24,422 nt of DNA from Oligoflexus sp. (GTDB taxonomy: Bacteria; Bdellovibrionota_B; Oligoflexia; Oligoflexales; Oligoflexaceae), in contig JBGSTX010000133.1 of NCBI GenBank assembly GCA_041736305.1, positions 1 to 24,422 of the forward strand, read 5' to 3'. Under the pieces are notes generated by a model. The model was not told the origin of the DNA. It searched no databases and worked only from the letters and a program-made list of their open reading frames with translations. Made by a program: the position numbers and the translations under genes. Positions 4,603 to 24,422 of the stretch are shown here, piece by piece. The stretch's first letter is position 1; every line of letters starts with the position of its first letter.

Positions 4603-4684
4603 TGTGGATACTTTCCAAAAAGGCAAAGAGAGACAGCTTCCATCACATCGCTGCTACACACGCGGCGGAGAGGAGACTTTGGCT

Positions 4685-6343
4685 ATGATCCATCTCGGGA
4701 TCGTCAGTAGGATTTTGCTCGGTTTCGCTTTATTTGGGGGACTCGCCTGCAATGAAGAGGCTCCCTTATCACATTCTCAGGCACTTGCGCCGAAGATTGA
4801 GACCAGAGCGCTGAGTCACAAGAAAATTCTCGATAAAATCTTCGCGCCCAGCAGCGAATGCTCTGCAGACGCTGGCAGCGTAGCCGTCCAGCTGCGCCGC
4901 CTGACTCGCCATGAGCTGCGGCTCAGCGTCGAAAATTTATTTAATCTAAATCTTGATATCGAAAAAGATCTACCACCAGACGAAAGCGTCTTCGGTTTCA
5001 AGAACAATTCTTCGCTCAATCTGGTGAGCATCGATCACGCGGTTGCCTATGCGCGGGTCGCCGATAAGATCGCGCTCGCAGTTTTAGATAAGGGCCTCAT
5101 GACGGAGCTTGCTTGCAGCGAAGCAGACGGTCAGGCATGCGCCAGCCGCCTCATTCAGGAATGGGGTCCCCGTATCTGGCGACGCCCTTTGAGCAATGCA
5201 GAGATTCCAGCTCTTGAAAACGTCTATGCAATCGGTGCGGAAGCCGGAATCAAAAATGGTCTACAGCTGACCCTGCGGGCCCTGCTCACCGCACCAGCCT
5301 TTCTCTATCGCTCCGAAATAGGTAAAGATGGCAAGCTCGACCCCTACGAGTGGGCTAGCGCGCTTTCTTATTTCTTCTGGTCGAGTGGGCCTGATGCCGA
5401 GCTCTTGGCGAAAGCAGCTGATGGCTCTCTCCTCAACGATCAGGTCCTGGCTCAAGAAGTACAGCGATTGCTCGCAAGCCCGCGCGCCAAGGAAGGTTTG
5501 AAGTCTTTTGTGGACAGTTGGACCGGCTATTCCCAGGTTCTACAGGTAAGCAAAGACATGAGCCGCTTTCCTCAGTTCAATTCTGAGACTCGCGTGCAAC
5601 TCGCTCGGGAAACGGAAGATTTTTTCGATCATGTCGTCCGGAGTTCAAATGGCAGTCTCCAGGATCTTCTCCTCGCCGACTACAGCCTAGGCGATCAGAC
5701 CCTCGCTGCTTACTATCAAGTCCCTTGGGAATCAGCCAGCGGGCGCCTCGACTTCTCAGCTCAAGAACGTCGCGGAATCCTCGGCCACGCCAGCATTCTA
5801 GCTTCTCTCTCCTACGCTCACGAAACGCACCCTATCAAGCGCGGGACCTTCATCAGAGAACACATACTCTGCGAAGAACTCTTGCCACCGCCTCCAACGC
5901 TTATGATACAGCCGCCACCGCCTAAAGAAGGTGCCACGACTCGAGAGCGCTTTGCAGCGCATACCGCCCAACCCGTTTGCAAGGGCTGTCACATCAGAAT
6001 TGATGGCGTCGGCTTTGGAATGGAAGACTTCGATGCCATCGGAATGCTGCGCACCAAGGATAATAACAAAGCGGTAGATAGTTCGGGCGAACTTTTCGAT
6101 GTCGATGGGCAGACGCGCACCTACCAAGGCGGGCGTCAACTGACCGAACTTCTTGGAAAGTCGGAGCGAGTCGAACGCTGTTTTGCACTGCAATGGTTCC
6201 GTCAGGCCTATGGTCGGGTTGAAAGCGAAGCGGATATCTGCACGATCCGTTCACTGGGCAGTGAATTCCATGCAGGAATGAGCATCCGTGATCTGATGGT
6301 CAAGGTCATCACCCACCCTTCTTATCGCCACAGGAGCCTCTGA
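4685..6343 (+). CDS. DUF1587/DUF1595/DUF1592/DUF1588/DUF1585 domain protein, predicted lipoprotein with a CxxCH motif
   Basis: LRRLTRHEL (DUF1587), IWRRPLS (DUF1595), LDPYEWASALSYFFWSSGPDAELL (DUF1592), RRGILGHAS..THPIKRG..TTRERFAAH..CKGCHIRIDGVGFGMEDFDAIG (DUF1588). Lipobox-like GLAC after a hydrophobic stretch. Start ATG 4685 has AGGAG upstream. Confidence 0.9.
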   Translation: MIHLGIVSRILLGFALFGGLACNEEAPLSHSQALAPKIETRALSHKKILDKIFAPSSECSADAGSVAVQLRRLTRHELRLSVENLFNLNLDIEKDLPPDESVFGFKNNSSLNLVSIDHAVAYARVADKIALAVLDKGLMTELACSEADGQACASRLIQEWGPRIWRRPLSNAEIPALENVYAIGAEAGIKNGLQLTLRALLTAPAFLYRSEIGKDGKLDPYEWASALSYFFWSSGPDAELLAKAADGSLLNDQVLAQEVQRLLASPRAKEGLKSFVDSWTGYSQVLQVSKDMSRFPQFNSETRVQLARETEDFFDHVVRSSNGSLQDLLLADYSLGDQTLAAYYQVPWESASGRLDFSAQERRGILGHASILASLSYAHETHPIKRGTFIREHILCEELLPPPPTLMIQPPPPKEGATTRERFAAHTAQPVCKGCHIRIDGVGFGMEDFDAIGMLRTKDNNKAVDSSGELFDVDGQTRTYQGGRQLTELLGKSERVERCFALQWFRQAYGRVESEADICTIRSLGSEFHAGMSIRDLMVKVITHPSYRHRSL

Positions 6344-6344
6344 G

Positions 6345-7688
6345 ATGAAAATTTGGAAACGAACTCTCGACCGCCGCCAACTCATGTCTAGCTTTGGTTC
6401 TGCGGCGATTGTCCTCCCCTTCATGCGCGTCCTCGAAGAGGAGCAGCTGCTGGCCGCGACATCGCAGCCTCGCGCAATATTCTGGTACTTCCCTGACGGC
6501 ATTATCAAACCCCTCTTTCATCCTGAAGGAAGCGGCAGTGACTTCACTTTTCCGACGATGACCCGCCCCCTCGATCGCGTTAGAAGCGACGTGACGATGA
6601 TCAAAAACGTCAATTATCGGGCCGAAGGCAGTCACGAGGGTGGTGGTGCCTACTGTCTAACCGGTCTTCCGGAGTCGAAGAAAGGCATTTCCATCGACAC
6701 CTTTCTCGGCCAAGCTTTCCAGGCAAGCTCTCAGCTGCCCGTCCTTCGCCTCGGCATCGGCGCCAATTTTCAAAAGAATAGTTCGATCTCCTTCTTTGCT
6801 CCAGGTGTCCCCGCTCTGGTTGAAGATCATCCGCTCAAGGCTTTTTATCAGATCTTCGGTGCTACGAGCGGCGATGTCGATCCCGCCACCAAAGATCGGA
6901 TAGTCCGCGGCGAGAAAAGCATACTCGACCTGAGTCTTCTCCAGCTGAAAAGTCTCGAGAATCAGTTGGGAGCAAATGAGAAGCAAAAGCTGCAGGTTCA
7001 CGTTGAAGCGCTGCGGGAACTGGAGCGCCGCGTTCAGGATGCAGGCCAGATCGGAGGTCAGCGTCTCCCTCAATGCACAGCGTCTGTCGACTGGCGGGGC
7101 ATGAGTTTCCCCGATAACGATTACAACTACCCGACTATGGAACATCGCAACGAACACTTTGGAACAGTGGGAAGCATCATGAGCGACCTCGGCGTCCAAG
7201 CCCTGGCTTGTGGTGTGACGCGAGTGCTTCTGCTCCAGTGGTCGCATCCGGTGAGTCCGACTCAGTTTGATTTCCCCGGTGCTGTATCTATCAGCCGCGG
7301 GCATCACGATACTTCCCATTACGGTGGTGATCCTGCTAGCTCCTATGCTAGTGATTTTGCTGCTTGCCAAGCTTGGTATATGGAAAAACTCGCACAGTTG
7401 ATCGAACAGCTGAAGGGTATCAAGATGGGAGACAAGAGCCTCCTTCATCATTCAGCCTTGCTGGCACTCACTGAAATTGCTGACTCCAATCTTCACGACT
7501 TTACTAACGTAGCTTTGGTGATGGCTGGACAAGCCGGTGGAAAACTCAAGAGCGGCATCTGTCTCGATGGACGCGGAGCCAGTCACAATCAAGTGCTGGT
7601 CAGCGTTCTTCAGGCAATGGGGCTCAATGAAGATAGTTTCGGCGATCCCCAGCTGGGAATGGGATCGCTGCCTGGACTTTTGAGCTGA
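6345..7688 (+). CDS. DUF1552 domain-containing protein
   Basis: N-terminal LDRRQLM..IVLPFM, FWYFPDG, SIDTFLG, EKQKLQVHVEALRELERRV, ALACGVTRV, HHDTSH, MAGQAGG. Starts 1 nt after the DUF1592 gene, the usual partner arrangement. Confidence 0.9.
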   Translation: MKIWKRTLDRRQLMSSFGSAAIVLPFMRVLEEEQLLAATSQPRAIFWYFPDGIIKPLFHPEGSGSDFTFPTMTRPLDRVRSDVTMIKNVNYRAEGSHEGGGAYCLTGLPESKKGISIDTFLGQAFQASSQLPVLRLGIGANFQKNSSISFFAPGVPALVEDHPLKAFYQIFGATSGDVDPATKDRIVRGEKSILDLSLLQLKSLENQLGANEKQKLQVHVEALRELERRVQDAGQIGGQRLPQCTASVDWRGMSFPDNDYNYPTMEHRNEHFGTVGSIMSDLGVQALACGVTRVLLLQWSHPVSPTQFDFPGAVSISRGHHDTSHYGGDPASSYASDFAACQAWYMEKLAQLIEQLKGIKMGDKSLLHHSALLALTEIADSNLHDFTNVALVMAGQAGGKLKSGICLDGRGASHNQVLVSVLQAMGLNEDSFGDPQLGMGSLPGLLS

Positions 7689-10587: not shown

Positions 10588-11679
10588 GTGAAATGGACTC
10601 GAGGCCTCATTCTCAGCTTATGCTGCTTTTGCTTTTTCAGTCTAAGTCTTTTTGATACAGCAAAAGGCGTAAGTCCCTCACCTCAATGGCAGACAGCTGC
10701 TGATGAGCTCATAAAACTCATCGAAAGTTCTGATAAGCAGACGCAGCAGGACAAGCTTGCCTGGCAGGAGATCAAAGACGCAATCAAACTTGCTTCGCGA
10801 AATGCTGAGACAGCCGCTGGGTTCTACGTCAGTGTCGATAAAATTCTCAGTGCCTGGTCAAGTGGTCGAGGTCTGCGCCTGCTTAACAACAGCCAAGCGA
10901 GCTACTATGCTTACAGCCAGGCCGCTCCAGAGTTTCGCGAAGTCGGAGCCTGGTTTGCAGCAAAAGGAGCCAAATGGTACGTAAAGCAGGTCAGTCGTCG
11001 TCCGGGCCAGGTTCTGCGGCGCGGTGATGCGATACTCAAAGCTGATTTTAATCCCGTTCTGAGTTGGAAGCCGGGCAGTAAGGAAACCATCGAGGTTCAG
11101 GCACAGACGCTGGAAGCTGCAAAGAAAGTAGAGCTCAAAGTCCAGAAGAAATCGCTCGCTGCCTGGGCTCTTGAAGAGACCCAAATGGGTTCTCAGACCC
11201 TGCCTCTCGGGGAAAAAAGATTGTGTGAAGAAAAAGTCTGGCTTTGGCTGACTCCTCCCGTTGCTCTCTATCTCGACTCTAAGCTTCGCGCTGCACAAGA
11301 AAGCTGCGACGCTATTCTGGTCGACTTGCGAGATAGTTTCGGCGAAAAACTGCCCAGTAGCACGCTGAAGAGCCAAAGCAAAAACAAGCCGAAACCTCTA
11401 GTCGTCCTAGTCAATCGCGAGACGCGGGAGCAGGCGGTGAATCTGGCTCTCAAGCTTAAAGATGAGCTCGGTGCGACGATCGTCGGCGAAGCGACGGCGC
11501 CGCGCCTCGTCCCGCAGCAAAAATTAGAGCTGAAGGAAATGCCTTGGCTGCTGCTTATCTATGAAAAGTCGGGAGGCAGTCTGCGGCCGGACGTGGAAAT
11601 TGCCGACCCCTGGATGCTAACAGTAGGCTTTGACGAGGTCAGAGAAGCCGGAATAAAGCAGCTCAAAGCGCTTCTCTGA
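10588..11679 (+). CDS. Exported S41 (CtpA/Tsp-like) peptidase homolog with degenerate PDZ and apparently no catalytic Ser/Lys
   Basis: Signal peptide; PDZ-like ..VKQV..LRRGDAIL; AILVDLRDSFG (cf. LILDLRNNxGG); KPLVVLVNRET..GATIVGEAT; LRPDVEI. GGAG upstream of the GTG start. Confidence 0.65.
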   Translation: MKWTRGLILSLCCFCFFSLSLFDTAKGVSPSPQWQTAADELIKLIESSDKQTQQDKLAWQEIKDAIKLASRNAETAAGFYVSVDKILSAWSSGRGLRLLNNSQASYYAYSQAAPEFREVGAWFAAKGAKWYVKQVSRRPGQVLRRGDAILKADFNPVLSWKPGSKETIEVQAQTLEAAKKVELKVQKKSLAAWALEETQMGSQTLPLGEKRLCEEKVWLWLTPPVALYLDSKLRAAQESCDAILVDLRDSFGEKLPSSTLKSQSKNKPKPLVVLVNRETREQAVNLALKLKDELGATIVGEATAPRLVPQQKLELKEMPWLLLIYEKSGGSLRPDVEIADPWMLTVGFDEVREAGIKQLKALL

Positions 11680-13535: not shown

Positions 13536-15398
13536 TCAAAAGGTCTTAGCCAATTCAAAATAAAAGCTCACATCCTCTATCTCTGACGGGTTCGCAGCCT
13601 TGAAAACATACTCCTTGGTGTCTTTCTCTTCATAGCTGTTCCTAATGATCGAGTAGCTTCCCGAGAAGCGGAGCCAGTCCGAGATCGCAAGTACCGCACC
13701 GGCTTGAAACAGCTGCTGGTCGACGTTGGTCAAGTAGTTTTTCATCACGTTCCCCTGATCATCTCGCTGCGAGTAAAGGTAGGCCGTCAGTAGGTTGTAA
13801 CCGCCTGAGGCTACCACCGTCAAAGCATCCCAGAGAGGATAATTAGCGGAGAGCAGAAATTTATTGGCGCCGTCTACCGCCGTCTCAATACTATCGATAG
13901 TACTGATACGGTTAACAAAACGCGATTTAGCTATATCTCTATCATAATAGGCTGCGCTGAATAGAAAAGAGGCATCGCCGATATTCGCGTTCATGGCCGC
14001 GTTGCCCCCGGCTTCAGTGGCAAAACCAACCCGGTAGCGAATCGATGGATCGACGAGAGTATAACGAAAGCGATCTGGACTGACAAACTCGACCCTGTCC
14101 GTCGCCCAGTAATAGGCATCCAATCCAAGCCGAAAGACCATGAAATCGTATTCGAGATCGACGCGAAAATAATTGTCGAGGGCGTCTTCCTTTTGCCCTT
14201 CATCGAAGGGCTGCTGCACGGAAGCTTCCGCGACGAAATCAACTTTCTTGCCTTCAAATCGCATGCCTGCCGTAATTGCGCTCTGACCCCAGGCCTTTTC
14301 GCTATCTGATTTCGGCATGTGGGTGATAAAAGAGCCTCCCAGTTCCAGACTAAAATTGTCGCCGAGCCCGAGGCTTCCATTCGCAGCTACTTTTCCGAAC
14401 GGTGCGCTCTCCGATTCTCTTTTATTTTTTTGCTCGGTGAATACTCCACTGGCTTGATCGACCACGAAGTAGCGAGATTTCTGAATCTTGGCGTTGTAAG
14501 AAGACTGACCGCCCTCAGCCAAGAGCTGCAAGGAGAGACCCGTTGCCGTTTGCGGTGGATGATAGTTCACCGTCGCGGTCACAGATTCTTTGTGAGCCAC
14601 TAAATTGAGCGAATCAAAGGCGAGGTTGTCATTGTCCAGTGTCGAGCCTTGCTGGGCCAATTTCAAAGAAGGGCGAAAGCTCAGATGCCACCCAGGCTCG
14701 GCACCATTTTTCTGGCTGGAATGGGCTTTAAGATCATCATCATTCCCATCTTCGTTCTCCCGCCAAGCTCCATCATCTTCACTAGGAGGCGGCGTGGCTT
14801 CAGCATAAGCTCGGCTACCTCTCCAGCCACTCACGCGTTCGATCATGCGATTCTGCTCGCGTCGAATATCACTCAGGTAGCGGCGTCTGTTCACCCGCAG
14901 AAAGACCGGCAGGTTCTCAGGATCAGCCTTCTGAAAGAAGCGTTTGGCTCGCGCCATCTGTCCGGTTTTGTAGTAGATCGACCCGAGATAGTAGATAGCC
15001 AGGCTGCGGTTTTTTCCCCGCTTGCGGACTTCGTAGCGCAGGCCTCTGGCCGCTTTGCTGTAGGACTTATTTTCCAAATATGTCATGCCGTAGGCGAAAG
15101 CCGACTCGTCCGTCAGTGAACGGACTTCGACGCGATCAAAATAATTCTTTGCCTTCTTCAATCGATGGTTTTCAAAGTAGATCGTGCCAAGCAGCAAAGC
15201 AGCCTCGTCATCGCTCGGTTCACGCTGAAGTATGGCTTTCAGTTGGCGGACCGCATCTTTAATTTCCTTGTTTTGATAGGATTCGAGAGCACTGGCGTAA
15301 GAGGATATACCTAGTTTTTCTCGCCTCGATTCGAGCGCGTACCCTTGCCCTGCGAGGCAGAAGATAAAAAGCAAGAATGGAAGGCTTCTGAAAGTCAT
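13536..15398 (-). CDS. TPR-repeat plus C-terminal outer-membrane beta-barrel protein
   Basis: Signal peptide (..GQGYA), 3-4 TPR-like helical pairs (AALLLGTIYF, AFAYGMTYL, AIYYLGSIYY), acidic linker, alternating beta-strand patterns, C-terminal FYFELAKTF (beta-signal Phe). Confidence 0.75.
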   Translation of the reverse strand: MTFRSLPFLLFIFCLAGQGYALESRREKLGISSYASALESYQNKEIKDAVRQLKAILQREPSDDEAALLLGTIYFENHRLKKAKNYFDRVEVRSLTDESAFAYGMTYLENKSYSKAARGLRYEVRKRGKNRSLAIYYLGSIYYKTGQMARAKRFFQKADPENLPVFLRVNRRRYLSDIRREQNRMIERVSGWRGSRAYAEATPPPSEDDGAWRENEDGNDDDLKAHSSQKNGAEPGWHLSFRPSLKLAQQGSTLDNDNLAFDSLNLVAHKESVTATVNYHPPQTATGLSLQLLAEGGQSSYNAKIQKSRYFVVDQASGVFTEQKNKRESESAPFGKVAANGSLGLGDNFSLELGGSFITHMPKSDSEKAWGQSAITAGMRFEGKKVDFVAEASVQQPFDEGQKEDALDNYFRVDLEYDFMVFRLGLDAYYWATDRVEFVSPDRFRYTLVDPSIRYRVGFATEAGGNAAMNANIGDASFLFSAAYYDRDIAKSRFVNRISTIDSIETAVDGANKFLLSANYPLWDALTVVASGGYNLLTAYLYSQRDDQGNVMKNYLTNVDQQLFQAGAVLAISDWLRFSGSYSIIRNSYEEKDTKEYVFKAANPSEIEDVSFYFELAKTF

Positions 15399-15412
15399 GC
15401 TTAGCTATGGCC

Positions 15413-16696
15413 TCAAGGTTCCGACTTCGGGTTTGGCGCTTGCAAAAATGCTTGCGCCGCCCGGATATCGCCGTTTTGCTGGATGATTTCCTGAAAATAC
15501 CTGAGTTCTTCGCCGCCAGATGAACGTTCTTTTTCCAGTTTTGCCAGATAATCTTTGAGGAGACTCTGGAATTTATTCAGGCTTTCGCTATCGAGCGTCG
15601 TCTGCCCTTCCAGGACAAGGAGCAGGCGCCGTTTAAGAGTCGCTTGATCCAGGCGTGATTTCCAGTTTGCCTTGACGCTCAGCGAGCTTTGACAATTGCT
15701 GAGGCTGCTTTCATTGTGACTATCCTCGATGCAGCTGAGAGCCCAGAGGGTTCCCGACATCTCAAATTCTTCACTCATGCCCTTACCCGTGATAACGCCG
15801 AGCTGCCAGCGCAGTCGCGACTCAAATACTTTGGCTTCCCAGGCAGTGCTCGCTGTCCCAAGCCGTTGCAAGGCCTTGAGGCTCATCTCCATGCAAGCTT
15901 CGGCGTAAGAACCAGGTCGCAACCAGCCTGGCATAGGTGAGCGGCTGCGGATCCAATGGGGGTCTATCGTTAATATTTGTGCCCAGTCCTCGCGTACGAG
16001 TTCGCGTCCATCTAGATAGCTGCTCCATCGATCCTGCTGCTTTTGGCTGCTTTTCCAAGTTTCTTCCCAGGCCGCCATCGAGCAGTCCTGCGGTAAAGGC
16101 TCTTCGACTTTACCTCGCAGCTTCTTACTCGAGAGACCCTCCCAATGGCCATCGCGGCTGAAGGCCACTGCGCGGACATAGGGCAGCCAGAGGCTGAGAC
16201 CTTTCTTCTTTTTCAAGGCTTTGCCGATAGTCTCTCGATTGCGATCCATATGCGCTTCGAAGCGGGTGGGATTCTCTTCACTAAAGAGATTCTGAGCTGT
16301 TTGAAAGGTACTATCTCTGTTGAAAAAAGCCGAGATCATTCCTAAATCGGCTTCGCGTAGAAGCAGAAAAAGTAGAATGGCACCTAGTACCGCCAGCCCA
16401 TAGATGGAGGCCGCATTGAGTCGCCTTTTCTTTCGGGATTTCTGGGGCATCTGCATCTGCGGTTGAGTATTCATGCCCCAGGCGCCGAGCATCTCGTTCT
16501 GTACCATCTGCGCTAGTTCAGGATAGTGGCGCCGTAAGGCATCCACATCATCGAAGGTGACCCATTGCTTGAGAGAGCCTGAGATCTCATCCTGCAGCCC
16601 GAACTCCATACGCGCGTAAGAATCCTTCAGTTGCTTGTGGTTGAAGGGCCCCAAGAACCGTTGCATGTCTACACGTATGAGATACAGCCGCTCCAT
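15413..16696 (-). CDS. Single-pass membrane protein with N-terminal GYF_2 (DUF4339)-like domain
   Basis: YLIRVDMQRFLGPFNHKQL..DEISG..QWV resembles GYF_2 (GPF..L..W). Basic KSRKKRR precedes one TM helix, followed by a large soluble region with 4 Cys. Confidence 0.6.
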   Translation of the reverse strand: MERLYLIRVDMQRFLGPFNHKQLKDSYARMEFGLQDEISGSLKQWVTFDDVDALRRHYPELAQMVQNEMLGAWGMNTQPQMQMPQKSRKKRRLNAASIYGLAVLGAILLFLLLREADLGMISAFFNRDSTFQTAQNLFSEENPTRFEAHMDRNRETIGKALKKKKGLSLWLPYVRAVAFSRDGHWEGLSSKKLRGKVEEPLPQDCSMAAWEETWKSSQKQQDRWSSYLDGRELVREDWAQILTIDPHWIRSRSPMPGWLRPGSYAEACMEMSLKALQRLGTASTAWEAKVFESRLRWQLGVITGKGMSEEFEMSGTLWALSCIEDSHNESSLSNCQSSLSVKANWKSRLDQATLKRRLLLVLEGQTTLDSESLNKFQSLLKDYLAKLEKERSSGGEELRYFQEIIQQNGDIRAAQAFLQAPNPKSEP

Positions 16697-16697
16697 A

Positions 16698-17426
16698 TCA
16701 CCTCGTTACCGCAGAAATCACGACCGTTACATTGTCTTGGCCGCCGGCATCGTTCGCTTCTTGGATGAGCCGCTGCGGAAGTTCATAAAGCCGATTCTCG
16801 TATTCTTTAATGATGCGCACAATCCGACGGTCGTTGACCATACCGGTAAGTCCGTCGGAGCAGGTCAGCAAAATTTCGCCGGGTTGCAGCTTGAGCTCAT
16901 AGATATCGACCTCACACTGGGTCGAGAGTCCTAGGGCCCGAACGAGAGCGCCTGGCTTAGGATTCATGGCCAGCGATCCGTCGGGTAACCAACCCCGTTC
17001 AACATAGTTCTCAACGTTGTGATCGAGCGTCAGCTGCCAGAGATTGGATTTGTAATAGAGATAGGTGCGGGAGTCACCCATATGGCAAATGAAAGCCTTT
17101 TCTCCGACGAAGAGTAGGCAATTGAGAGTCGTCGCCATCCCTTCAAGGCTCGGCGTATGCAGGCCCTTGGCTATGATTTCCTTGTTCACCTGATCGATAG
17201 TCTTACTTAAGAAGGGCTCGACTTCTTCGTGCCGGAGGCTGTCGCAAGCGAGATAGGCTTCCTTGATGCCGTTCACGGCTGTAGAAGAAGCAGTTTCCCC
17301 ACCCTTGCGTCCGCCGATGCCATCGGCGACGATGAGCAAACCTAGCTCAGCGTTAAAGAAAAGGCTGTCCTGATTGTTTTTCCGAACGCGCCCCATGTCG
17401 GTGGCACCGTACATTTCTATACGCAA
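16698..17426 (-). CDS. PP2C (PPM) family Ser/Thr protein phosphatase, Stp1/PrpC-like
   Basis: TDMGRVRKNNQDS, VADGIGG, GMATT, HMGDSRTY, QLTLDH, LVRALG, CSDGLT, GGQDNVT. Likely TTG start at 17426, 6 nt after GGAGG. Confidence 0.95.
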   Translation of the reverse strand: MRIEMYGATDMGRVRKNNQDSLFFNAELGLLIVADGIGGRKGGETASSTAVNGIKEAYLACDSLRHEEVEPFLSKTIDQVNKEIIAKGLHTPSLEGMATTLNCLLFVGEKAFICHMGDSRTYLYYKSNLWQLTLDHNVENYVERGWLPDGSLAMNPKPGALVRALGLSTQCEVDIYELKLQPGEILLTCSDGLTGMVNDRRIVRIIKEYENRLYELPQRLIQEANDAGGQDNVTVVISAVTR

Positions 17427-17478
17427 GACTTTCCTCCCTGCTTGCTGAGGCGCCCGAAAGAGTCGACCTCTGCTTTGG

Positions 17479-17505
17479 GCATCGACAAAAAGCATGAAAT
17501 CTTGA
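17479..17505 (-). promoter_or_regulatory. Putative sigma28 (FliA)-type promoter upstream of the PP2C operon
   Basis: Minus strand TCAAGATT-N11-GTCGATGC versus consensus TAAAGTTT-N11-GCCGATAA. Confidence 0.4.
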
Positions 17506-17602: not shown

Positions 17603-18448
17603 TCAGAGCACGGACCTCGTGCGCGGATATTCGCAGAGAAGCTCAGGGAGATAGACCCACCCCTGCTGGAGGAAGAAATCACTCTGCGGTTTGGTGCAAA
17701 GCCCTTCGAGTTCAAGAGCAGCGACTAGAGCAGCCATGTACGCTGAAAACCCTTCGACGCTTGCTACGATAGCATCATCGATCGGACCAGCGATGAAAGC
17801 CCGCTCACTCAGGGCTTGGAGGAGCTTGAGGCGCCGCTTCCTACCGACTTCGAAAGCCCGGTATTCATATGCGAGTTCGGCTTCGAGATCCAGCTGATCG
17901 ACTAGCACGCTCATCGCATGGGGTATCGATGTTTCACGCATCACGGGGGCTTCAGCTAGGCTATTCAGGCGTTTTTGTAGGGTCATCGCCCGCACGACAA
18001 GCGGGGCTTTATTTGCGCTGTAGGTCGGCTCCTGCAGAGAAGGCTGCCACTTGAACCATTCTTTGACATCCCAGATGCGCTGGGTTTGGGGATTGAGTGG
18101 GCGCTTGCGGCGTTTGCCTGTTTGAGACTCAAGAAGCATCTGCATGTAGGCCACAGAGATATCCTCGCAGGCGTTTACACCGGGGCAACTGACACGCGTG
18201 CAAGCTACGCAGGGAGGCACAGTCAAAGGGCTGTCAATCATGATGCTGTCGGGACGTTGATTCCTCAGTATATCGAAGAGTCTGTCATCGGAAAAAAGCT
18301 TGTGGAGCGCTCCCATGCGGTCATGCACGGAACTTATCTTTAGGTTGCCTTCCCCTAAGCGACCTGTCATGATCACTAGAGTTGTCTTGTTAGAATTGGG
18401 GCCTGCAAGGTGGATCCCTGCTACTTTGACCTTCGGTGCATCCAGCAT
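17603..18448 (-). CDS. DUF429-like (predicted RNase H-fold) protein with a 4-Cys insert
   Basis: VAGIHLAG (cf. GIDLA), MIDSPLT (cf. AIDAPL), CVACTRVSCPGVNAC, C-terminal GWVYLP (cf. GxIxxP). Confidence 0.6.
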   Translation of the reverse strand: MLDAPKVKVAGIHLAGPNSNKTTLVIMTGRLGEGNLKISSVHDRMGALHKLFSDDRLFDILRNQRPDSIMIDSPLTVPPCVACTRVSCPGVNACEDISVAYMQMLLESQTGKRRKRPLNPQTQRIWDVKEWFKWQPSLQEPTYSANKAPLVVRAMTLQKRLNSLAEAPVMRETSIPHAMSVLVDQLDLEAELAYEYRAFEVGRKRRLKLLQALSERAFIAGPIDDAIVASVEGFSAYMAALVAALELEGLCTKPQSDFFLQQGWVYLPELLCEYPRTRSVL

Positions 18449-18494: not shown

Positions 18495-20234
18495 ATGTGG
18501 AACAGAATGTTTCGATTCCTAAGCCGATTTTTTTTGCTTCTCTTACTTTTCGCACCCTTTCTTCAATTCCCGGCGGCTCTCGAGGCTGCCGCATCTGATT
18601 CTAACCTACTCGCTCGTGCGCAAGAAGAGTTTTCCCGTCGCAAGTATGAAGAAGCAATGCTCCTCCTCCGCGCCTACCTGCGGAAGCATCCCAAAGATCA
18701 GGATGCCTGGACACGTTTTGCCGCCACCTATTATCACACAGGTCAGGCGAATTATGCCCTCCAGTATCTTCTCAAAGCCAAAAGTTCGCCTGAGCTACGT
18801 ATTTTCAACATGTATTACCGCGCCCTTTGTTACGACGCACTAGGCGACGAAAAGCGCGCTGACCGCCTCCTGCGGAAGGTTATCAAGTCAGAGGACCCCT
18901 TAGCCGAAGACGCCCTTTTTGAAAAGGCCGCTATCGAATTTGACACTGGCGACAAGCAAGCTGCCAAAGATACTGCTCGCGACTATCTACGTCGTTACCG
19001 CGGTGGCCGTCATAGAGCTCAGGCTGATTTCATTCTGAAGAACATCGATAAGGCGAGTAAAGTCGATGTCCCCGAATCGCAGCGGACCCTCTATCGCTCG
19101 AGCTATTTCCAAGTTCACCCTTACTCACTCATGCCGATTCCTCATAGCTGGGTCTATCAACTCGGTTTTTTCTATAAGGGTGGCCAGGAACAGTCGCCGA
19201 CACTCGGCAATACCGGGACCGAAGCTAAGGATTACGAGGAAATCAAAATCTTAAGTCGCATCGGTTTAGCCTTGGGGCCTTTCACCAAAAATTGGTCATC
19301 GACGACAGTCGGCTACTTCTACTCGCAGGATTGGTTGAGCGATAGTGACAGGACTGCGGAGTATCTTGAAGACCCGACCGATCTCGAGTATTTTCTCTTC
19401 CGCCCTGATATGCAGGAGCGTTCTCACCGCTTTTATCTCGACTCTTCAGGAAGCTTCGGGCCGGTGAAAGCTGGCGCCTACGCTCACTTTGAATTCGTGC
19501 GAGGCGGTTCTTCACTCTTTCCTGCACCTGAAAGACCTGAAATCAGGCGCTCGTTCGATATTCGAAACGGCACGATGCTAGCTCCTTACGTGGATTGGGA
19601 AGTGATCCCCGACCATCGCTTGCGATTTTCGCTGCTGCTCGAAAAGGTGTTCGATAGCCAGCAGTCAGCATTTTCATACAAGACCTACAATTTCACGACT
19701 GACGACGAAGATCGCTTTGCCAGCATGCTCATCCAGGAGCATAGCTACTGGCCGGACTATGGGATCCGCGCCTCCTTCGAAATCTTTCGTCTGTCTTCCC
19801 TATACAACGACTTCTGGGAAGGCTCTTCCTCAATCGGTGGAGCGACCCGCTTCGAGTGGGAACCCATACCTTATTTGAGATTTTCAGCTAAAGTCGGCTA
19901 CGCTAGCCGCGACTACCTCTCCGAAGCCATCAAAAGTTCACCCTGCAACCAGACTCCGCAGCAGGGGCCCCGGGGCCCGGCACAGGCTTTCGCCTGTCCT
20001 CGTCATGAAAACACTTTAAAAGCCGAAGGTTCAGCCAATTTTTTCTCAAGCAAACACTCCTCTTTCTCAGTCGTGGGTGGTTATGAGAAGACCGAGAATG
20101 ATACACTGAAGGTATACGATGATACTTCTCAGTACTTCATGATCCGATTCTCGCAGGCCTTTCCTGACCTCAGGACGGGCGCTCAACATATCGAGCCGCC
20201 GCGTGGCTTGTTTCAAACCAGGGAATTCTACTGA
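18495..20234 (+). CDS. TPR-repeat plus probable outer-membrane beta-barrel protein
   Basis: Signal peptide (..AALEA), TPRs (YEEAMLLLRAYL, YYRALCYDALG, ALFEKAAIEF, ARDYLRRYRGG), amphipathic beta-strand-rich C-terminal half ending YFMIRFSQAF plus a short tail. Confidence 0.7.
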   Translation: MWNRMFRFLSRFFLLLLLFAPFLQFPAALEAAASDSNLLARAQEEFSRRKYEEAMLLLRAYLRKHPKDQDAWTRFAATYYHTGQANYALQYLLKAKSSPELRIFNMYYRALCYDALGDEKRADRLLRKVIKSEDPLAEDALFEKAAIEFDTGDKQAAKDTARDYLRRYRGGRHRAQADFILKNIDKASKVDVPESQRTLYRSSYFQVHPYSLMPIPHSWVYQLGFFYKGGQEQSPTLGNTGTEAKDYEEIKILSRIGLALGPFTKNWSSTTVGYFYSQDWLSDSDRTAEYLEDPTDLEYFLFRPDMQERSHRFYLDSSGSFGPVKAGAYAHFEFVRGGSSLFPAPERPEIRRSFDIRNGTMLAPYVDWEVIPDHRLRFSLLLEKVFDSQQSAFSYKTYNFTTDDEDRFASMLIQEHSYWPDYGIRASFEIFRLSSLYNDFWEGSSSIGGATRFEWEPIPYLRFSAKVGYASRDYLSEAIKSSPCNQTPQQGPRGPAQAFACPRHENTLKAEGSANFFSSKHSSFSVVGGYEKTENDTLKVYDDTSQYFMIRFSQAFPDLRTGAQHIEPPRGLFQTREFY

Positions 20235-20842
20235 TGAGCATAGATGATGCCGCCCTTGACTTGATTCATGAAAGCGTCCGACGCCGATCGCAGGTTTTTT
20301 TTTCAGCTTCTGAAGTCCAGGTCGTATTTCAGACGCAGATATTGAGCCTCAAAAACAAATCGATAGTCCTCGCCAACTCGGTGCCGCCTGATTATATCGG
20401 CAAGGTAGCGAAGTCTAGCCAGTTCTTTCTCAAGGTGCAGTCGGTGCGTTTCGTATGCGAGCGCATCCTTTCCGATGGTGTCCATATTCTCTTCCCTCTC
20501 GAAGATATTCGACAGATCGAAGACAGCCGCAGCGCCAAGCGCTTTATGTTCGATACCAATGAAAGAGTCGTGCTCGAAGTCGTCAATCCTATCGACCAGG
20601 AAACTATCCTGCGCAAGGCTGTGCTCGACATGTCGACGACTGGACTATCCATTCGCACCCCCAGGCAGTCGCAGCTCTATGCTCCGGGGCAACAGTTCAA
20701 GGGCATGAAAATTATCATGGATGGCAAGATCTATAATGAGGTCGATGCTCACGTGGTGTACCAACAGGCTTTTCTGAGTCAGAAAGGCAAGAGCTACTGC
20801 CAAGTAGGCTTTAAGTTCGAGATGGAGCACCCGAATCCCTAA
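20234..20842 (+). CDS. PilZ-domain c-di-GMP receptor (YcgR-like two-domain layout)
   Basis: RSAKRF (RxxxR), DMSTTG (DxSxxG), C-terminal VGFKF; overlaps the upstream stop (TGATG). Confidence 0.8.
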   Translation: MSIDDAALDLIHESVRRRSQVFFSASEVQVVFQTQILSLKNKSIVLANSVPPDYIGKVAKSSQFFLKVQSVRFVCERILSDGVHILFPLEDIRQIEDSRSAKRFMFDTNERVVLEVVNPIDQETILRKAVLDMSTTGLSIRTPRQSQLYAPGQQFKGMKIIMDGKIYNEVDAHVVYQQAFLSQKGKSYCQVGFKFEMEHPNP

Positions 20843-20877
20843 TTGGTTTCCCTAGCGAAACAAGGTCTCAATTAAGC

Positions 20878-22320
20878 ATGCAAAAACTCAAGAAACATCA
20901 AAAAATCTATGTCAATCGCTCTTTGAACATGGCGACCATACGGTCCATTGGTTTCGACATGGATCATACGCTCGTCCTCTACAATAGAGAGAATTTTGAA
21001 AGCCTGGCCTTTCATGAAACGGTCAAGAAATTCGTAGCCAACGGCTATCCGGAAGAACTTTCCAAACTCAAGTTCGACCCCAACTTTGTGATCCGCGGAC
21101 TGCTCGTCGACCGTGAGCGCGGCAATCTCTTGAAAGTCGACGCCCATAAATACGTTAAAATCGCCTCGCACGGCCACCGCCGCCTCGAGAAAGAAGAGCG
21201 CTACGAACTCTATAATGCCAAGAGTTTCAAGGCGGATGATTTCCTTACAGTAGATACCTTCTTCGCTTTGAGCGAGACGCAGCTCTTCACGGAAATCGTC
21301 GACTACATGCGTCGGCATCCCGATTCGGTCGGCAAGACGTTTAGAGCCGTCTATCAGGACCTGCGCGAGTGGATCGATCTTTCTCACCAGGACGGTAGTA
21401 TCAAAAACTTAGTTCTCACCGATCCCGAGCGTTACATCGTGCGCGATAAGCACCTAGTGGAAACTTTGGTAAAGCTCATCGACGGTGGCAAAAAGCTTTT
21501 CGTCATCACCAACTCTGACTGGACCTACACCAATTCTGTCATGAGTTACCTACTCAACGATCTGCACGACGACTTCCCGCGTTGGCAGGACTACTTTGAG
21601 TACATCATCGTCAGCGCGGGTAAGCCAAACTTTTTTACAGGGAGCAATCCCTTCTACGAAGTCGTGCCTGAGAAAGAAGGTCTGCTTAAGCTCCACCGCG
21701 GCCCGCTCGAGCCGAAGAAAATATACCATGGCGGTAACGCCATTCTTTTTGAAAAGTTAACGCGGCAGAAAGGTGATCAGATTCTTTACTGCGGCGATCA
21801 TATCTATGGCGATATCCAGCGTTCGAAGGAACTCTTCAACTGGCGCACCCTGCTCGTCGTCCAAGAGCTCGAAGAAGAGCTTTTCAAACTTGAAAAATTG
21901 CGCCCTGAATTTGAACGCATCGTCGACTCTATCCGTCTCGAGGAAGAGATCCAAGAAGAAGCCCAGGCGCTTCGTTCCGAGATCGGCAATCTGCAGCGGC
22001 GACTGAAGATGAACAGTTCGGATCGGCAAAAAGAGCAGAAGAGTCTGCAGCGTTTCAAGGAGTACCAGGACCAGCTCATGCATAAGGAAACGCAGCTCAT
22101 CGAGCAGCATAAAATCATCAAAGAGCTGATCGACAAGCGCGAGAAATCTGTGCATCCCATCTGGGGCGAGCTAATGCGAACCAGTCTTGAACGCAGCCGT
22201 TTCGCCAAGCAAGTGGAATCCTATGCCTGTCTCTATACGAGTCGAGTGACCCATTTGCGCTTCTACTCATGTAGCCAGAAGTTCCGCTCCTACCGGGACA
22301 TGATGCCGCATGATCTTTAA
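20878..22320 (+). CDS. HAD-IG family 5'-nucleotidase (cN-II-like IMP/GMP nucleotidase)
   Basis: IYVNRSLNM, GFDMDHTL (DxD), IRGLLVD, ITNSDW, AGKPNFF, YHGGN, LYCGDHIYGDI, WRTLLVVQELEEE, C-terminal MPHD. Confidence 0.95.
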   Translation: MQKLKKHQKIYVNRSLNMATIRSIGFDMDHTLVLYNRENFESLAFHETVKKFVANGYPEELSKLKFDPNFVIRGLLVDRERGNLLKVDAHKYVKIASHGHRRLEKEERYELYNAKSFKADDFLTVDTFFALSETQLFTEIVDYMRRHPDSVGKTFRAVYQDLREWIDLSHQDGSIKNLVLTDPERYIVRDKHLVETLVKLIDGGKKLFVITNSDWTYTNSVMSYLLNDLHDDFPRWQDYFEYIIVSAGKPNFFTGSNPFYEVVPEKEGLLKLHRGPLEPKKIYHGGNAILFEKLTRQKGDQILYCGDHIYGDIQRSKELFNWRTLLVVQELEEELFKLEKLRPEFERIVDSIRLEEEIQEEAQALRSEIGNLQRRLKMNSSDRQKEQKSLQRFKEYQDQLMHKETQLIEQHKIIKELIDKREKSVHPIWGELMRTSLERSRFAKQVESYACLYTSRVTHLRFYSCSQKFRSYRDMMPHDL

Positions 22321-22512: not shown

Positions 22513-24422
22513 ATGTCAGATAGGTCTGACAACAATGACTCAAACTTGGCAAAGCTTTTTGCCAAGCACATGGACGTCATACTCCGACAGCTCGAACTGC
22601 TAGAGAAAGAACAGAAGAATCCAGCCCCGACTGCTGCGAGCAGCTCCGCTAACTTGAAAGCCCTAGTTCCGGTCGGAGCTAGCAAAGCTAAAATCGCCGT
22701 CATAGGTATGGCCGGCCGCTTCCCTGGGGCCCAGAGCGTCGCTGAATTCTGGAAGAACCTCAACGCCGGAGTCGAGTCGATCTCAACTTTTGAGCCTGAG
22801 GAAATTGATAGAGCTGTAGCAGCCGCCGACCGAGAGCACCCCAACTACGGCCGTTCGCGAGGGATCCTCGCCGATGCTGACAAGTTCGATGCCGCGTTTT
22901 TCCGTATCAGTCCCCGTGAAGCAAAAATAATCGATCCTCAGCAACGCATTTTTCTCGAGCTGGCCTACCAGGCGCTACAGGACGCAGCCTACGACCCTGA
23001 GCGCTTTCCGGGTGAAATTGGTGTTTTCGCAGGAGTCGGCGACAACTTCTATCACATCAATAATGTGCTCGACAAAAAAGACCTTATTAAGCAGGTCGGT
23101 AGTCTCTCGACAACTGTTGGCAACATGAAAGACTACGTAGCGACGCGGGTATCCTACAAACTCAACCTACGCGGTCCCAGCATCAGTCTCAACACGGCTT
23201 GCTCGACCTCCTTGGTTGCAGTTGATCAAGCTGTCTGGTCACTTCGAAACGGTCACTGCTCGATGGCTCTGGCCGGAGCCGCGACTATCTATGTCCCGCA
23301 AAAAGCCGGCTTTATGCACGGCCCCGGGCTACCCTTTGCGAGCGATGGCCACGTGCGGCCCTTCAGCGCCGATGCCACAGGAGTTCTCTTCAGCGATGGT
23401 GCGGGCGTCGTCGTCCTCAAGCGTCTCGAAGATGCCGAGAGAGACGGTGACCACATCTATGGCGTGATCATCGGCAGTGCGACGAACAATGATGGTGCCG
23501 AAAAAGTCAGCTTCTTCGCTCCCAGTGTTTCGGGTCAAGCGCGGGTCATCACCAAAGCTCTGGAAGACGCCGGGGTTTCGGCGGCGACGATTTCCTTCAT
23601 CGAAGCGCATGCTACAGGTACCCTGCTGGGTGATCCTGTAGAATTCGAGGGTTTAAAAACGGCCTTTGCCCCCTACACCGATAAAAAAGGTTTCTGCGCC
23701 CTCGGAGCTTTCAAGGGTAACATCGGCCATACAGATTCCGCCGCAGGGATTACAGGCCTGATCAAGGCCCTTCTCGCCATCAAACATCGCAGCTTGCCAC
23801 CGAGTCTCAACTTTCGCTTGGCCAATCCGGCTATCGACCTCGATAATTCGCCCTTCTTCGTTCCTGAAAAAGCTGTTTCACTGATGAGCGGAGAGCTACC
23901 TTTACGCGCTGGAATTAGCGCATTTGGCTTTGGCGGAACCAACTGCCATGTCATCATTGAAGAAGCCCCAAAATCAGCTGCCACATCGAGCGGCTATCCT
24001 CAGCAGCTCCTCTTGATCTCAGCAGAAACACCTGAAGCCCTTGCGCGAGCGCGTCGCGATCTCAGAACGCATCTAGAACGGGAGACTAAATTACCTTTGG
24101 CTGACGTTGCCTATACTCTCGCCGAGGGACGCAAGGCGTTTAGCTATCGTAGCTATTTCACTGTTGGCGATCGCCAAGAGGCCCTTAAGGCACTAGATGG
24201 CGATGACACCGTTCACGAGCTCGAACTTGGCGCAGAAATTGCCGCAGCCTTTATTTTTCCCGGTCAAGGAATTCAGTCGATCAACATGGGGCGCGAGCTC
24301 TATGAGTCCCAGCCCAGTTTTAGAAAGACTCTGGACTCCTGTGCCGACATGCTGAAAGCTCATATCGATATCGATATGCGGCAGCTGCTCTTTCCGAGTC
24401 AAAATCTCGAAGCGGCGGCGCT
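22513..24422 (+). CDS. Type I polyketide synthase, KS domain and start of AT (3' end beyond window)
   Basis: Manual translation: IAVIGMAGRFPGA, FDAAFFRISPREA, DPQQRIFLE, NTACSTSLVA (Cys at 23200-23202), EAHATGT, KGNIGHTDSAAG, SAFGFGGTNCH, LADVAYTL, AFIFPGQG (AT entry). Confidence 0.97.
   Translation, partial: MSDRSDNNDSNLAKLFAKHMDVILRQLELLEKEQKNPAPTAASSSANLKALVPVGASKAKIAVIGMAGRFPGAQSVAEFWKNLNAGVESISTFEPEEIDRAVAAADREHPNYGRSRGILADADKFDAAFFRISPREAKIIDPQQRIFLELAYQALQDAAYDPERFPGEIGVFAGVGDNFYHINNVLDKKDLIKQVGSLSTTVGNMKDYVATRVSYKLNLRGPSISLNTACSTSLVAVDQAVWSLRNGHCSMALAGAATIYVPQKAGFMHGPGLPFASDGHVRPFSADATGVLFSDGAGVVVLKRLEDAERDGDHIYGVIIGSATNNDGAEKVSFFAPSVSGQARVITKALEDAGVSAATISFIEAHATGTLLGDPVEFEGLKTAFAPYTDKKGFCALGAFKGNIGHTDSAAGITGLIKALLAIKHRSLPPSLNFRLANPAIDLDNSPFFVPEKAVSLMSGELPLRAGISAFGFGGTNCHVIIEEAPKSAATSSGYPQQLLLISAETPEALARARRDLRTHLERETKLPLADVAYTLAEGRKAFSYRSYFTVGDRQEALKALDGDDTVHELELGAEIAAAFIFPGQGIQSINMGRELYESQPSFRKTLDSCADMLKAHIDIDMRQLLFPSQNLEAAA

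Follow-up and report, generated by a model that had tools for sequence, protein, structure and literature searches.

A candidate two-subunit, membrane-anchored Ser/Thr phosphatase receptor with an accessory outer-membrane barrel protein in Oligoflexus sp.

The locus described here lies on contig JBGSTX010000133.1 of an Oligoflexus sp. genome (assembly GCA_041736305.1; 5.0 Mb in 392 contigs); the whole contig, 24,422 bases, was analyzed and is referred to below as the window. Three consecutive minus-strand genes encode a PP2C Ser/Thr phosphatase, a single-pass inner-membrane protein with an N-terminal GYF-fold domain (the membrane protein) and a protein with a signal peptide, a tetratricopeptide repeat (TPR) domain and an outer-membrane beta-barrel (the barrel protein). 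The reading that is favored, with modest confidence, is that the first two products form a two-subunit, membrane-anchored Ser/Thr phosphatase receptor, to which the barrel protein is an accessory.

The open reading frames (ORFs) listed for the locus span positions 13536-15398 (620 amino acids), 15413-16696 (427 amino acids) and 16698-17495. The junctions were read directly: the phosphatase and membrane-protein genes are separated by a single nucleotide (TGA-t-ATG), and the membrane-protein and barrel genes by 14 nucleotides (TGA, 14 nt, ATG). A first-pass annotation made from the sequence alone had given these spacings together with the three products and their predicted compartments, all of which were borne out by direct reading, domain searches and structural models. 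The spacing suggests that the three genes are co-transcribed; a promoter and terminator scan of the locus gave a result no better than shuffled sequence. The phosphatase start in that annotation, the TTG at 17426, coincides with a start codon at the homologous position in 20/20 orthologues and was for this reason preferred, giving 242 residues, over the longer frame opened by the ATG at 17495.

The phosphatase scored over the Pfam cut-offs for PP2C_2 (E 5e-14, 52.7 bits, cut-off 24) and PP2C (39.5 bits, cut-off 20.3). It matched the NCBIfam Stp1/IreP model (NF033484) with E 2.4e-64 and 217 bits, below the equivalog cut-off of 230, and by sequence is classed as a family-level relative of Stp1/IreP and not as an equivalog. 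A profile built from 19 orthologues matched tPphA (2j82), Stp1 (2pk0), PstP (1txo/2cm1) and PppA (6jkv) in the PDB over residues 3-240. PP2C phosphatases carry the motifs RxxNQD, DGxGG, GDSR, SDG and DN; residues D20, D35, G36, G38, G39, G117, D118, S119, R120, D191, G192, D231 and N232 were invariant in all 19 sequences, and the metal-binding and catalytic motifs are intact. A hydropathy scan found no hydrophobic segment, in agreement with the cytoplasmic location first proposed. One paralogue with 37% identity is encoded elsewhere in the genome. Pfam scans of the window found no kinase, in agreement with the first-pass annotation; on other contigs there are at least five complete Hanks kinase domains, and seven Pfam Pkinase matches were over the cut-off, some of them partial.

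The membrane protein has only one strong hydrophobic segment, at residues ~95-115 (KD19 maximum of 2.47 at residue 95), with the basic patch KSRKKRR ahead of it. It contains exactly four cysteines (205, 268, 322 and 335), all C-terminal to the transmembrane (TM) segment and all invariant in 37/37 homologues; many tryptophan columns of the same alignment are also invariant. One TM segment following a basic patch, with the four conserved cysteines beyond it, argues for a bitopic protein whose C-terminal domain is periplasmic, as the first reading had it, and the cysteines would then probably form two disulfides. The AF2 model (mean pLDDT 87.3, mostly above 90 in the periplasmic domain) consists of a beta-beta-alpha-beta domain (residues 1-74), a disordered linker, a TM helix at 95-115 and an all-alpha domain of ~300 residues.

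The N-terminus had been described as GYF_2-like. The fold part of that description stood, whereas membership of the Pfam family did not (see below). Foldseek placed the N-terminal domain with the GYF domain of GltJ (7z3c, probability 1.00, root-mean-square deviation (rmsd) 3.1 over 56 columns), Smy2 (3fma, probability 0.99) and GIGYF2 (7rup, TMt 0.66). VIA gave Z 6.5 with 8z9y_E (rmsd 2.2, 58 residues aligned), Z 5.6 with GIGYF1 (7ruq, 60/62), Z 5.4 with 3fma and Z 5.7 with GltJ 7z3c (24% identity over 68 residues). One homologue is annotated by its source as a 'GYF domain-containing protein'. Judged from its model, the domain is GYF at the level of fold and not a Pfam GYF_2 member. Over the whole membrane protein of the window, Pfam returned no family at E<=10, and NCBIfam and PDB profile searches were empty. 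For the periplasmic domain, a VIA-wide search returned nothing but TPR-type structures, namely the peptide-binding solenoids PlcR, Rap, AimR and LpoA-N as well as DdvA, all at Z<=7.4, below the level that is meaningful for helical repeats, and the best score in a protein-atlas search was 0.79, which is taken as a lead only.

The membrane protein was present in 41/41 relatives of the order and in 88 of 131 sampled genomes of the phylum, nearly all of these from the window's order. The family comprises 178 clusters among 1.84 billion representative proteins (E<=0.001) and is small and lineage-restricted; its members include sources named Oligoflexus sp. and Pseudobacteriovorax. The phosphatase and membrane-protein genes were adjacent in 20/20 fetched loci from ~16 families of the order. 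When shorter, GYF-only forms were included, the phosphatase and GYF genes were adjacent in 24/27 loci across the order. The GYF-only ORFs (85-168 amino acids) occur in seven smaller genomes of the window's order (L033-L037, L040 and L041), most lack a TM helix, and the phosphatase gene adjoins them in 4/7 loci and lies ~4 kb away in the other three.

In a sister lineage of the class, the two halves of the pair are joined: PP2C, a GYF-like domain and a C-terminal TM segment were found in one open frame at 20/20 loci (2/2 and 18/18), a lineage reached through weak class-level matches and with three of the 20 loci cut by contig ends. The fused proteins are ~395-484 amino acids long and often end in a conserved LLPAY tail (L038:4148-5365, L039:4142-5326 and L042-L059); with one query, the fused form was found in 20/33 genomes of the sister family. 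The GYF_2 hidden Markov model (HMM) gave no match at E<=0.01 to the fused form searched. Residues R8, G16, E37, W45 and Y58 are invariant across the split, GYF-only and fused forms, and L6 and P17 are nearly so. Comparison of the three forms identifies the PP2C and the GYF domain as the conserved unit, with the TM segment, the periplasmic domain and the barrel gene as additions to it. In the fused-form neighborhoods, an inositol-monophosphatase/TldD-like fusion was seen in both L038 and L039, and Lgt and PAP2 genes in L039.

The co-fold paired the phosphatase (alignment of 19 rows) with the first 94 residues of the membrane protein (alignment of 37 rows). The runs gave ipSAE values of 0.89, 0.88 and 0.89, against 0.01 for the best of three controls, shared at least 93% of their contacts and had partner pLDDT values of at least 74. 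The calibration mark, which the result passes, is one that 116 of 157 solved complexes and 2 of 215 mismatched pairs attained, counts that hold only roughly here since our own alignments were used. On the phosphatase, the predicted interface comprises residues 123, 125-132, 134, 174-179, 199-200 and 203, including the hairpin by which the chain passes from GDSR to the flap. The GYF domain contributes residues 1-2, 4, 6, 8, 11-14, 17, 39-42 and 45, which involve its beta-sheet with the conserved R8, P17 and W45. We know of no solved PP2C-GYF complex, and a remembered complex is an unlikely source of the result, because every PDB relative of the phosphatase carries only a phosphatase name. Fusion and co-fold, which are independent of each other, point the same way, and the phosphatase probably docks on the GYF domain. 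In the GltJ GYF domain, the ligand is bound through the beta-sheet and not through the canonical eukaryotic groove, according to the available text of PMC11135422.

The catalytic subunit of the proposed receptor would be an intact Stp1-type PP2C, docked onto the GYF beta-sheet by an edge hairpin located before the flap (~123-134), together with residues 174-179 and 199-203. The GYF domain, as the N-terminal, cytoplasmic part of the bitopic membrane protein, would tether the phosphatase at the inner membrane and would perhaps gate it through the flap-proximal hairpin; this placement would be akin to that of PstP, and the function is proposed by analogy. On the other side of the membrane, the TPR-like domain, probably disulfide-braced, would bind a periplasmic ligand or protein, and this binding may set the place or the activity of the phosphatase toward the substrates of Hanks kinases whose genes lie elsewhere. 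The barrel protein, presumably co-transcribed with the pair in the genus to judge from gene spacing, would be the best candidate for contact with the periplasmic domain, being the most economical choice given its operon position and its co-absence with the GYF-only forms.

The barrel protein itself conforms to what had been predicted from sequence: it has a leader, Pfam TPR matches at residues 21-160 and a C-terminal phenylalanine (F620) that is invariant in 17/17 sequences. In its AF2 model (pLDDT 79.6), TPR helices occupy residues 33-190, the stretch 190-233 is a disordered linker, and the 16 strands follow at 236-617. The alignment, of only 17 sequences, is shallow. It was built from the fetched loci because word-based searches, in which TPR words crowd out the candidates, gave no more than four to five close relatives. 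Identity across families is 14-21%, and the sequence evolves fast. Foldseek of the whole protein ranked E. coli BcsC first (9b8a, E 2.3e-10, TMq 0.30) with ordinary porins close behind, and VIA with residues 235-620 returned a flat list of 16-18-strand porins (Z 17-20). HMMs of barrel families gave no match to the protein. With the leader, the 16 modeled strands and the terminal phenylalanine, the general features of outer-membrane proteins are present, and the model is that of a genuine outer-membrane barrel with a periplasmic TPR arm, although not of a demonstrable member of the Slam or BcsC families.

The barrel gene lies directly downstream of the membrane-protein gene, on the same strand, in 26/41 genomes, and overlaps it or lies within 52 nucleotides of it in 12/12 fetched loci that have the gene. 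It is missing at the loci of 15/41 relatives and from 8/20 fetched loci, including two complete genomes; at one locus (L024), a 438-amino acid ORF with a weak profile match occupies its position. None of the seven GYF-only loci has a barrel gene beside the GYF gene, although a second, divergent barrel gene is kept in all seven; neither of the two fused-form neighborhoods that were examined (L038 and L039) has one. In one genus with GYF-only forms, the second barrel protein is shortened to ~380-490 amino acids and matches only the C-terminal part of its own profile. The annotation had treated the three genes as a one-operon system. That view holds for the phosphatase and the membrane protein, on the strength of conserved linkage, fusion and the contrast between the co-fold and its controls, and is weakened for the barrel gene, which follows in fewer than two thirds of the genomes. 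With these absences and several genes of the same architecture in the lineage, the barrel protein is taken as an accessory and not as part of the conserved core.

The alternative that survives best takes the barrel protein for a separate, TPR-anchored porin or polysaccharide-type channel whose gene just shares the transcript, the phosphatase and GYF protein being the only unit and the periplasmic domain sensing something else. This is rather unlikely in our estimation, although the dispensability of the barrel gene in many genomes, its fast evolution, its absence from the fused-form neighborhoods and the several TPR-plus-barrel genes of the order (18495-20234 in the window and a further class of ~540-580 amino acids in many relatives) all favor it. 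It sits poorly with the position of the gene, which, when present, is always immediately downstream on the same strand (12/12 fetched loci), and with its loss together with the periplasmic domain.

A full trans-envelope machine, in which the periplasmic domain binds the TPRs of the barrel protein to form a conduit or contact sensor that is under phospho-regulation and serves export, adhesion or the sensing of surfaces, is judged distinctly less probable still. The gene order with its tight spacing in 26/41 genomes, the presence of one component in each compartment, the TPR-type, protein-binding folds of both periplasmic parts, the restriction of the barrel gene to loci with full-length forms that have the periplasmic domain and the rank of the exporter BcsC as best Foldseek match are consistent with such a machine. 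The persistence of the phosphatase and GYF protein at the 15 loci without a barrel gene argues against it, as do the equally good matches of the barrel to generic porins and the low TMq (0.30) of the BcsC match. The window showed no gene for a cargo, synthase, adhesin or energy-coupling protein, and the export or adhesion role suggested at first found no specific support. That the membrane protein is the counterpart of GltJ/AgmX in a Glt/Agl-like gliding system, as the presence of GltJ 7z3c among the best structural matches of its N-terminal domain might suggest, is largely refuted and very improbable, since there is no cysteine before residue 205 and hence no ZnR, the periplasmic domain is ordered and all-alpha with neither the disordered region nor the TonB-CTD-like domain described for GltJ in the available part of PMC11761067, no Glt or Agl gene was recognized in the window, and GYF domains occur widely on unrelated membrane receptors of bacteria (PMC11135422, in the text available).

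Several observations weigh against the favored reading of a two-subunit phosphatase receptor. Pfam GYF_2 (PF14237) matched 0/37 members of the membrane-protein family at E<=1, a PDB profile match of the N-terminal domain to GIGYF1 appeared only at E 1.6, and the GYF label is a matter of fold in a predicted model of a small domain (Z 5.4-6.5). The periplasmic domain is without an informative structural relative. The co-fold is a statement of model confidence, neither it nor the fusion is a measurement, and all of the structures are predicted. The phosphatase-GYF pair can do without membrane anchoring, as GYF-only forms lacking a TM segment exist; the barrel gene is missing from the loci noted above. 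Neither a kinase nor a substrate is linked to the locus. The synteny loci were drawn from related genomes and are not independent, so that the counts overstate their support. On the other side, the homologues proved to be linked in relatives, the N-terminal domain to model with a GYF fold and the C-terminal region of the barrel protein to model as a barrel, in each case the opposite of what the first-pass annotation had named as evidence against itself.

A bolder form of the proposal is possible, though we consider it doubtful: the GYF-fold domain would be a dedicated PP2C docking module, the proteins would make up a new class of transmembrane phosphatase receptor, with split, fused and soluble variants among Oligoflexia-type bacteria, and in full-length proteins the TPR-like periplasmic domain, braced by disulfides, would read the state of the TPR-bearing outer-membrane barrel. 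If so, what happens at the outer membrane or in the periplasm would translate directly into Ser/Thr dephosphorylation in the cytoplasm, and bacterial GYF domains would have a second kind of ligand, the edge of a folded enzyme as opposed to a proline-rich peptide. Should the docking alone prove real, there would be a ligand to test for a bacterial GYF domain that is not part of the gliding machine of Myxococcus, and the split, fused and soluble series could be used to study how a Ser/Thr phosphatase is localized or gated from the periplasm. The locus may be a lineage-specific link between the state of the envelope and phosphorylation signaling; with a family that is small and lineage-restricted, the interest is mechanistic rather than broad. 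Genetics should be possible, as cultured relatives (Oligoflexus and Pseudobacteriovorax) are among the homologues.

Membrane-anchored PP2Cs and membrane receptors with an N-terminal GYF domain are each already known, and linking the two appears to be undescribed. A collection of open-access papers was searched for PP2C-GYF pairing, GYF_2/DUF4339 and outer-membrane TPR proteins of Oligoflexia, supplementary figures of GYF gene neighborhoods lying outside the search, and no description of the pairing was returned. The sole bacterial paper with both GYF and PP2C dealt, in its available text, with unrelated systems (PMC7159879). The coordinates of the features are collected in Table 1.

Table 1. 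Features of the phosphatase receptor locus and its immediate context in the 24,422-base window.
Feature	Position	Strand	Basis
Stp1-type PP2C Ser/Thr phosphatase, 242 amino acids, predicted cytoplasmic, TTG start	16698..17426	-	Pfam, NCBIfam, PDB profile, motifs
Shine-Dalgarno GGAGG, 6 nt ahead of the phosphatase TTG start	17433..17437	-	Read in sequence
Membrane-protein gene (whole), 427 amino acids	15413..16696	-	ORF; present in 41/41 relatives
GYF-fold cytoplasmic domain, membrane protein residues 1-74; predicted PP2C docking site	16475..16696	-	AF2 model, Foldseek, VIA, co-fold
Single TM helix, membrane protein residues ~95-115, after KSRKKRR; probable N-in topology	16352..16414	-	Hydropathy, model
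Predicted periplasmic all-alpha TPR-like domain, membrane protein residues 118-419, four invariant Cys	15440..16345	-	Model, alignment
Barrel-protein signal peptide, residues 1-21; probable cleavage after GYA	15336..15398	-	Hydrophobic leader; helix 5-17 in model
Barrel-protein periplasmic TPR domain, residues 33-190	14829..15302	-	Pfam TPR_19 (4e-10) and others; nine helices in model
Predicted 16-stranded outer-membrane beta-barrel, residues 236-620, ending in Phe and stop codon	13536..14693	-	AF2 model, VIA, F620
Upstream gene, 281 amino acids; context, possibly in the phosphatase transcription unit	17603..18448	-	Synteny, phosphatase side, 14/20 loci
Divergent pair: second TPR-plus-barrel-type gene (18495-20234) and PilZ gene (20234-20842), 1-nt overlap	18495..20842	+	Conserved context

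The three genes belong to a wider conserved block with the upstream 281-residue gene and the divergent genes for the second TPR-plus-barrel protein, a PilZ protein and a HAD-IG 5'-nucleotidase. The upstream product had no Pfam, NCBIfam or PDB match and carries a CxxC...C...C cluster around residues 80-94; in some relatives, LysR, AhpF/AhpC-like, TatD and aminotransferase genes are inserted between its gene and that of the phosphatase. The divergent operon (18495-22320, plus strand) opens with the second signal-peptide TPR-plus-barrel-type protein (579 amino acids, two invariant cysteines). This gene was syntenic in 14/20 loci and in 7/9 further loci, and throughout the order the divergent block stays beside the phosphatase-GYF pair, also in genomes that have lost the first barrel gene. 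The product of 20234-20842 has RxxxR at residues 99-103 and DxSxxG at 132-137, which we take to be the PilZ motifs. Profile comparison aligned the two barrel proteins in their TPR parts only (127 columns, probability 98%), and paralogy of the barrels was not supported. The third class, of ~540-580 amino acids, is matched in many relatives by the barrel protein's TPR part, and in four of them lies on the same contig at a distance of 35-70 kb; TPR plus barrel may be a common outer-membrane architecture in the lineage.

Further from the locus, positions 4604-7688 (plus strand) encode a 579-amino acid PSD2-5/PSCyt3 protein (DUF1585/1587/1588/1592/1595) adjoining a 447-amino acid DUF1552 (HXXSHH) protein, a pairing typical of Planctomycetes-type genomes. 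The gene at 10588-11679 (plus strand) encodes a signal-peptide protein with a borderline Peptidase_S41 match (23.9 bits, cut-off 24); its synteny with the locus, shared by CAAX protease and SpoU methylase genes, extends to the family level only. A polyketide synthase module opens at 22513-24420 (plus strand) with KS, the KS-AT linker and the beginning of AT, and runs off the contig.

Among known systems, the barrel protein is most readily compared with Slam and with BcsC/PgaA/PelB, with which it shares a signal peptide, periplasmic TPRs and a C-terminal outer-membrane barrel. The Slam barrel has 14 strands, against 16 predicted here, and no lipoprotein cargo gene is nearby. TPR_Slam (PF24575) scored 23 bits against a cut-off of 35.2 (E 1e-4) in the window protein, and 5/17 members matched at E<=0.1, the best at 3e-7. 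SlipAM/DUF560 (PF04575) gave no match at E<=0.1 in the window protein and was not in the 25 listed of the 39 families matched by the 17 members; protein-atlas features gave a SlipAM cluster at 0.95, tied with CymA and unnamed barrel clusters. The Slam analogy drawn at first was thus not sustained. Compared with BcsC, there are only ~four TPRs here against many, the BcsC barrel HMM did not match (NCBIfam included), and no synthase or glycosyltransferase family was found in the window.

The phosphatase belongs over its full length to the catalytic family of PstP, Stp1/IreP, tPphA and PppA. PstP of Mycobacterium tuberculosis carries a TM segment and an extracellular domain, and the Oligoflexus pair would by analogy work in a similar way, with an extracytoplasmic domain connected to a PP2C that is kept at the inner membrane. 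The receptor proposed here differs from PstP in being split over two polypeptides, one with the catalytic domain and one with the TM/extracytoplasmic part, which a GYF-fold domain would dock together; in the single chain of the sister lineage, the GYF domain is inserted between PP2C and TM segment. A further difference is that the periplasmic domain belongs to a family without a named relative.

GltJ (AgmX) of Myxococcus xanthus resembles the membrane protein in its cytoplasmic N-terminal GYF fold, linker, one TM segment and periplasmic part, and in the binding of a ligand through the beta-sheet, so far as the available text describes it (PMC11135422). The GltJ/AgmX analogy of the first-pass annotation does not extend further: ZnR and a TonB-like domain are missing here, whereas the periplasmic part of GltJ is a disordered segment ending in a TonB-CTD-like domain (PMC11761067, available part). 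The predicted ligand is the edge of a folded PP2C and not a proline-rich sequence, and Pfam GYF_2 does not match. Most bacterial GYF proteins carry the domain at the N-terminus of membrane receptor modules that may signal between compartments, as set out in the part of PMC11135422 that was available. From its models, the locus fits this class as it is described there, and adds to it a specific predicted ligand, the PP2C phosphatase encoded by the adjacent gene.

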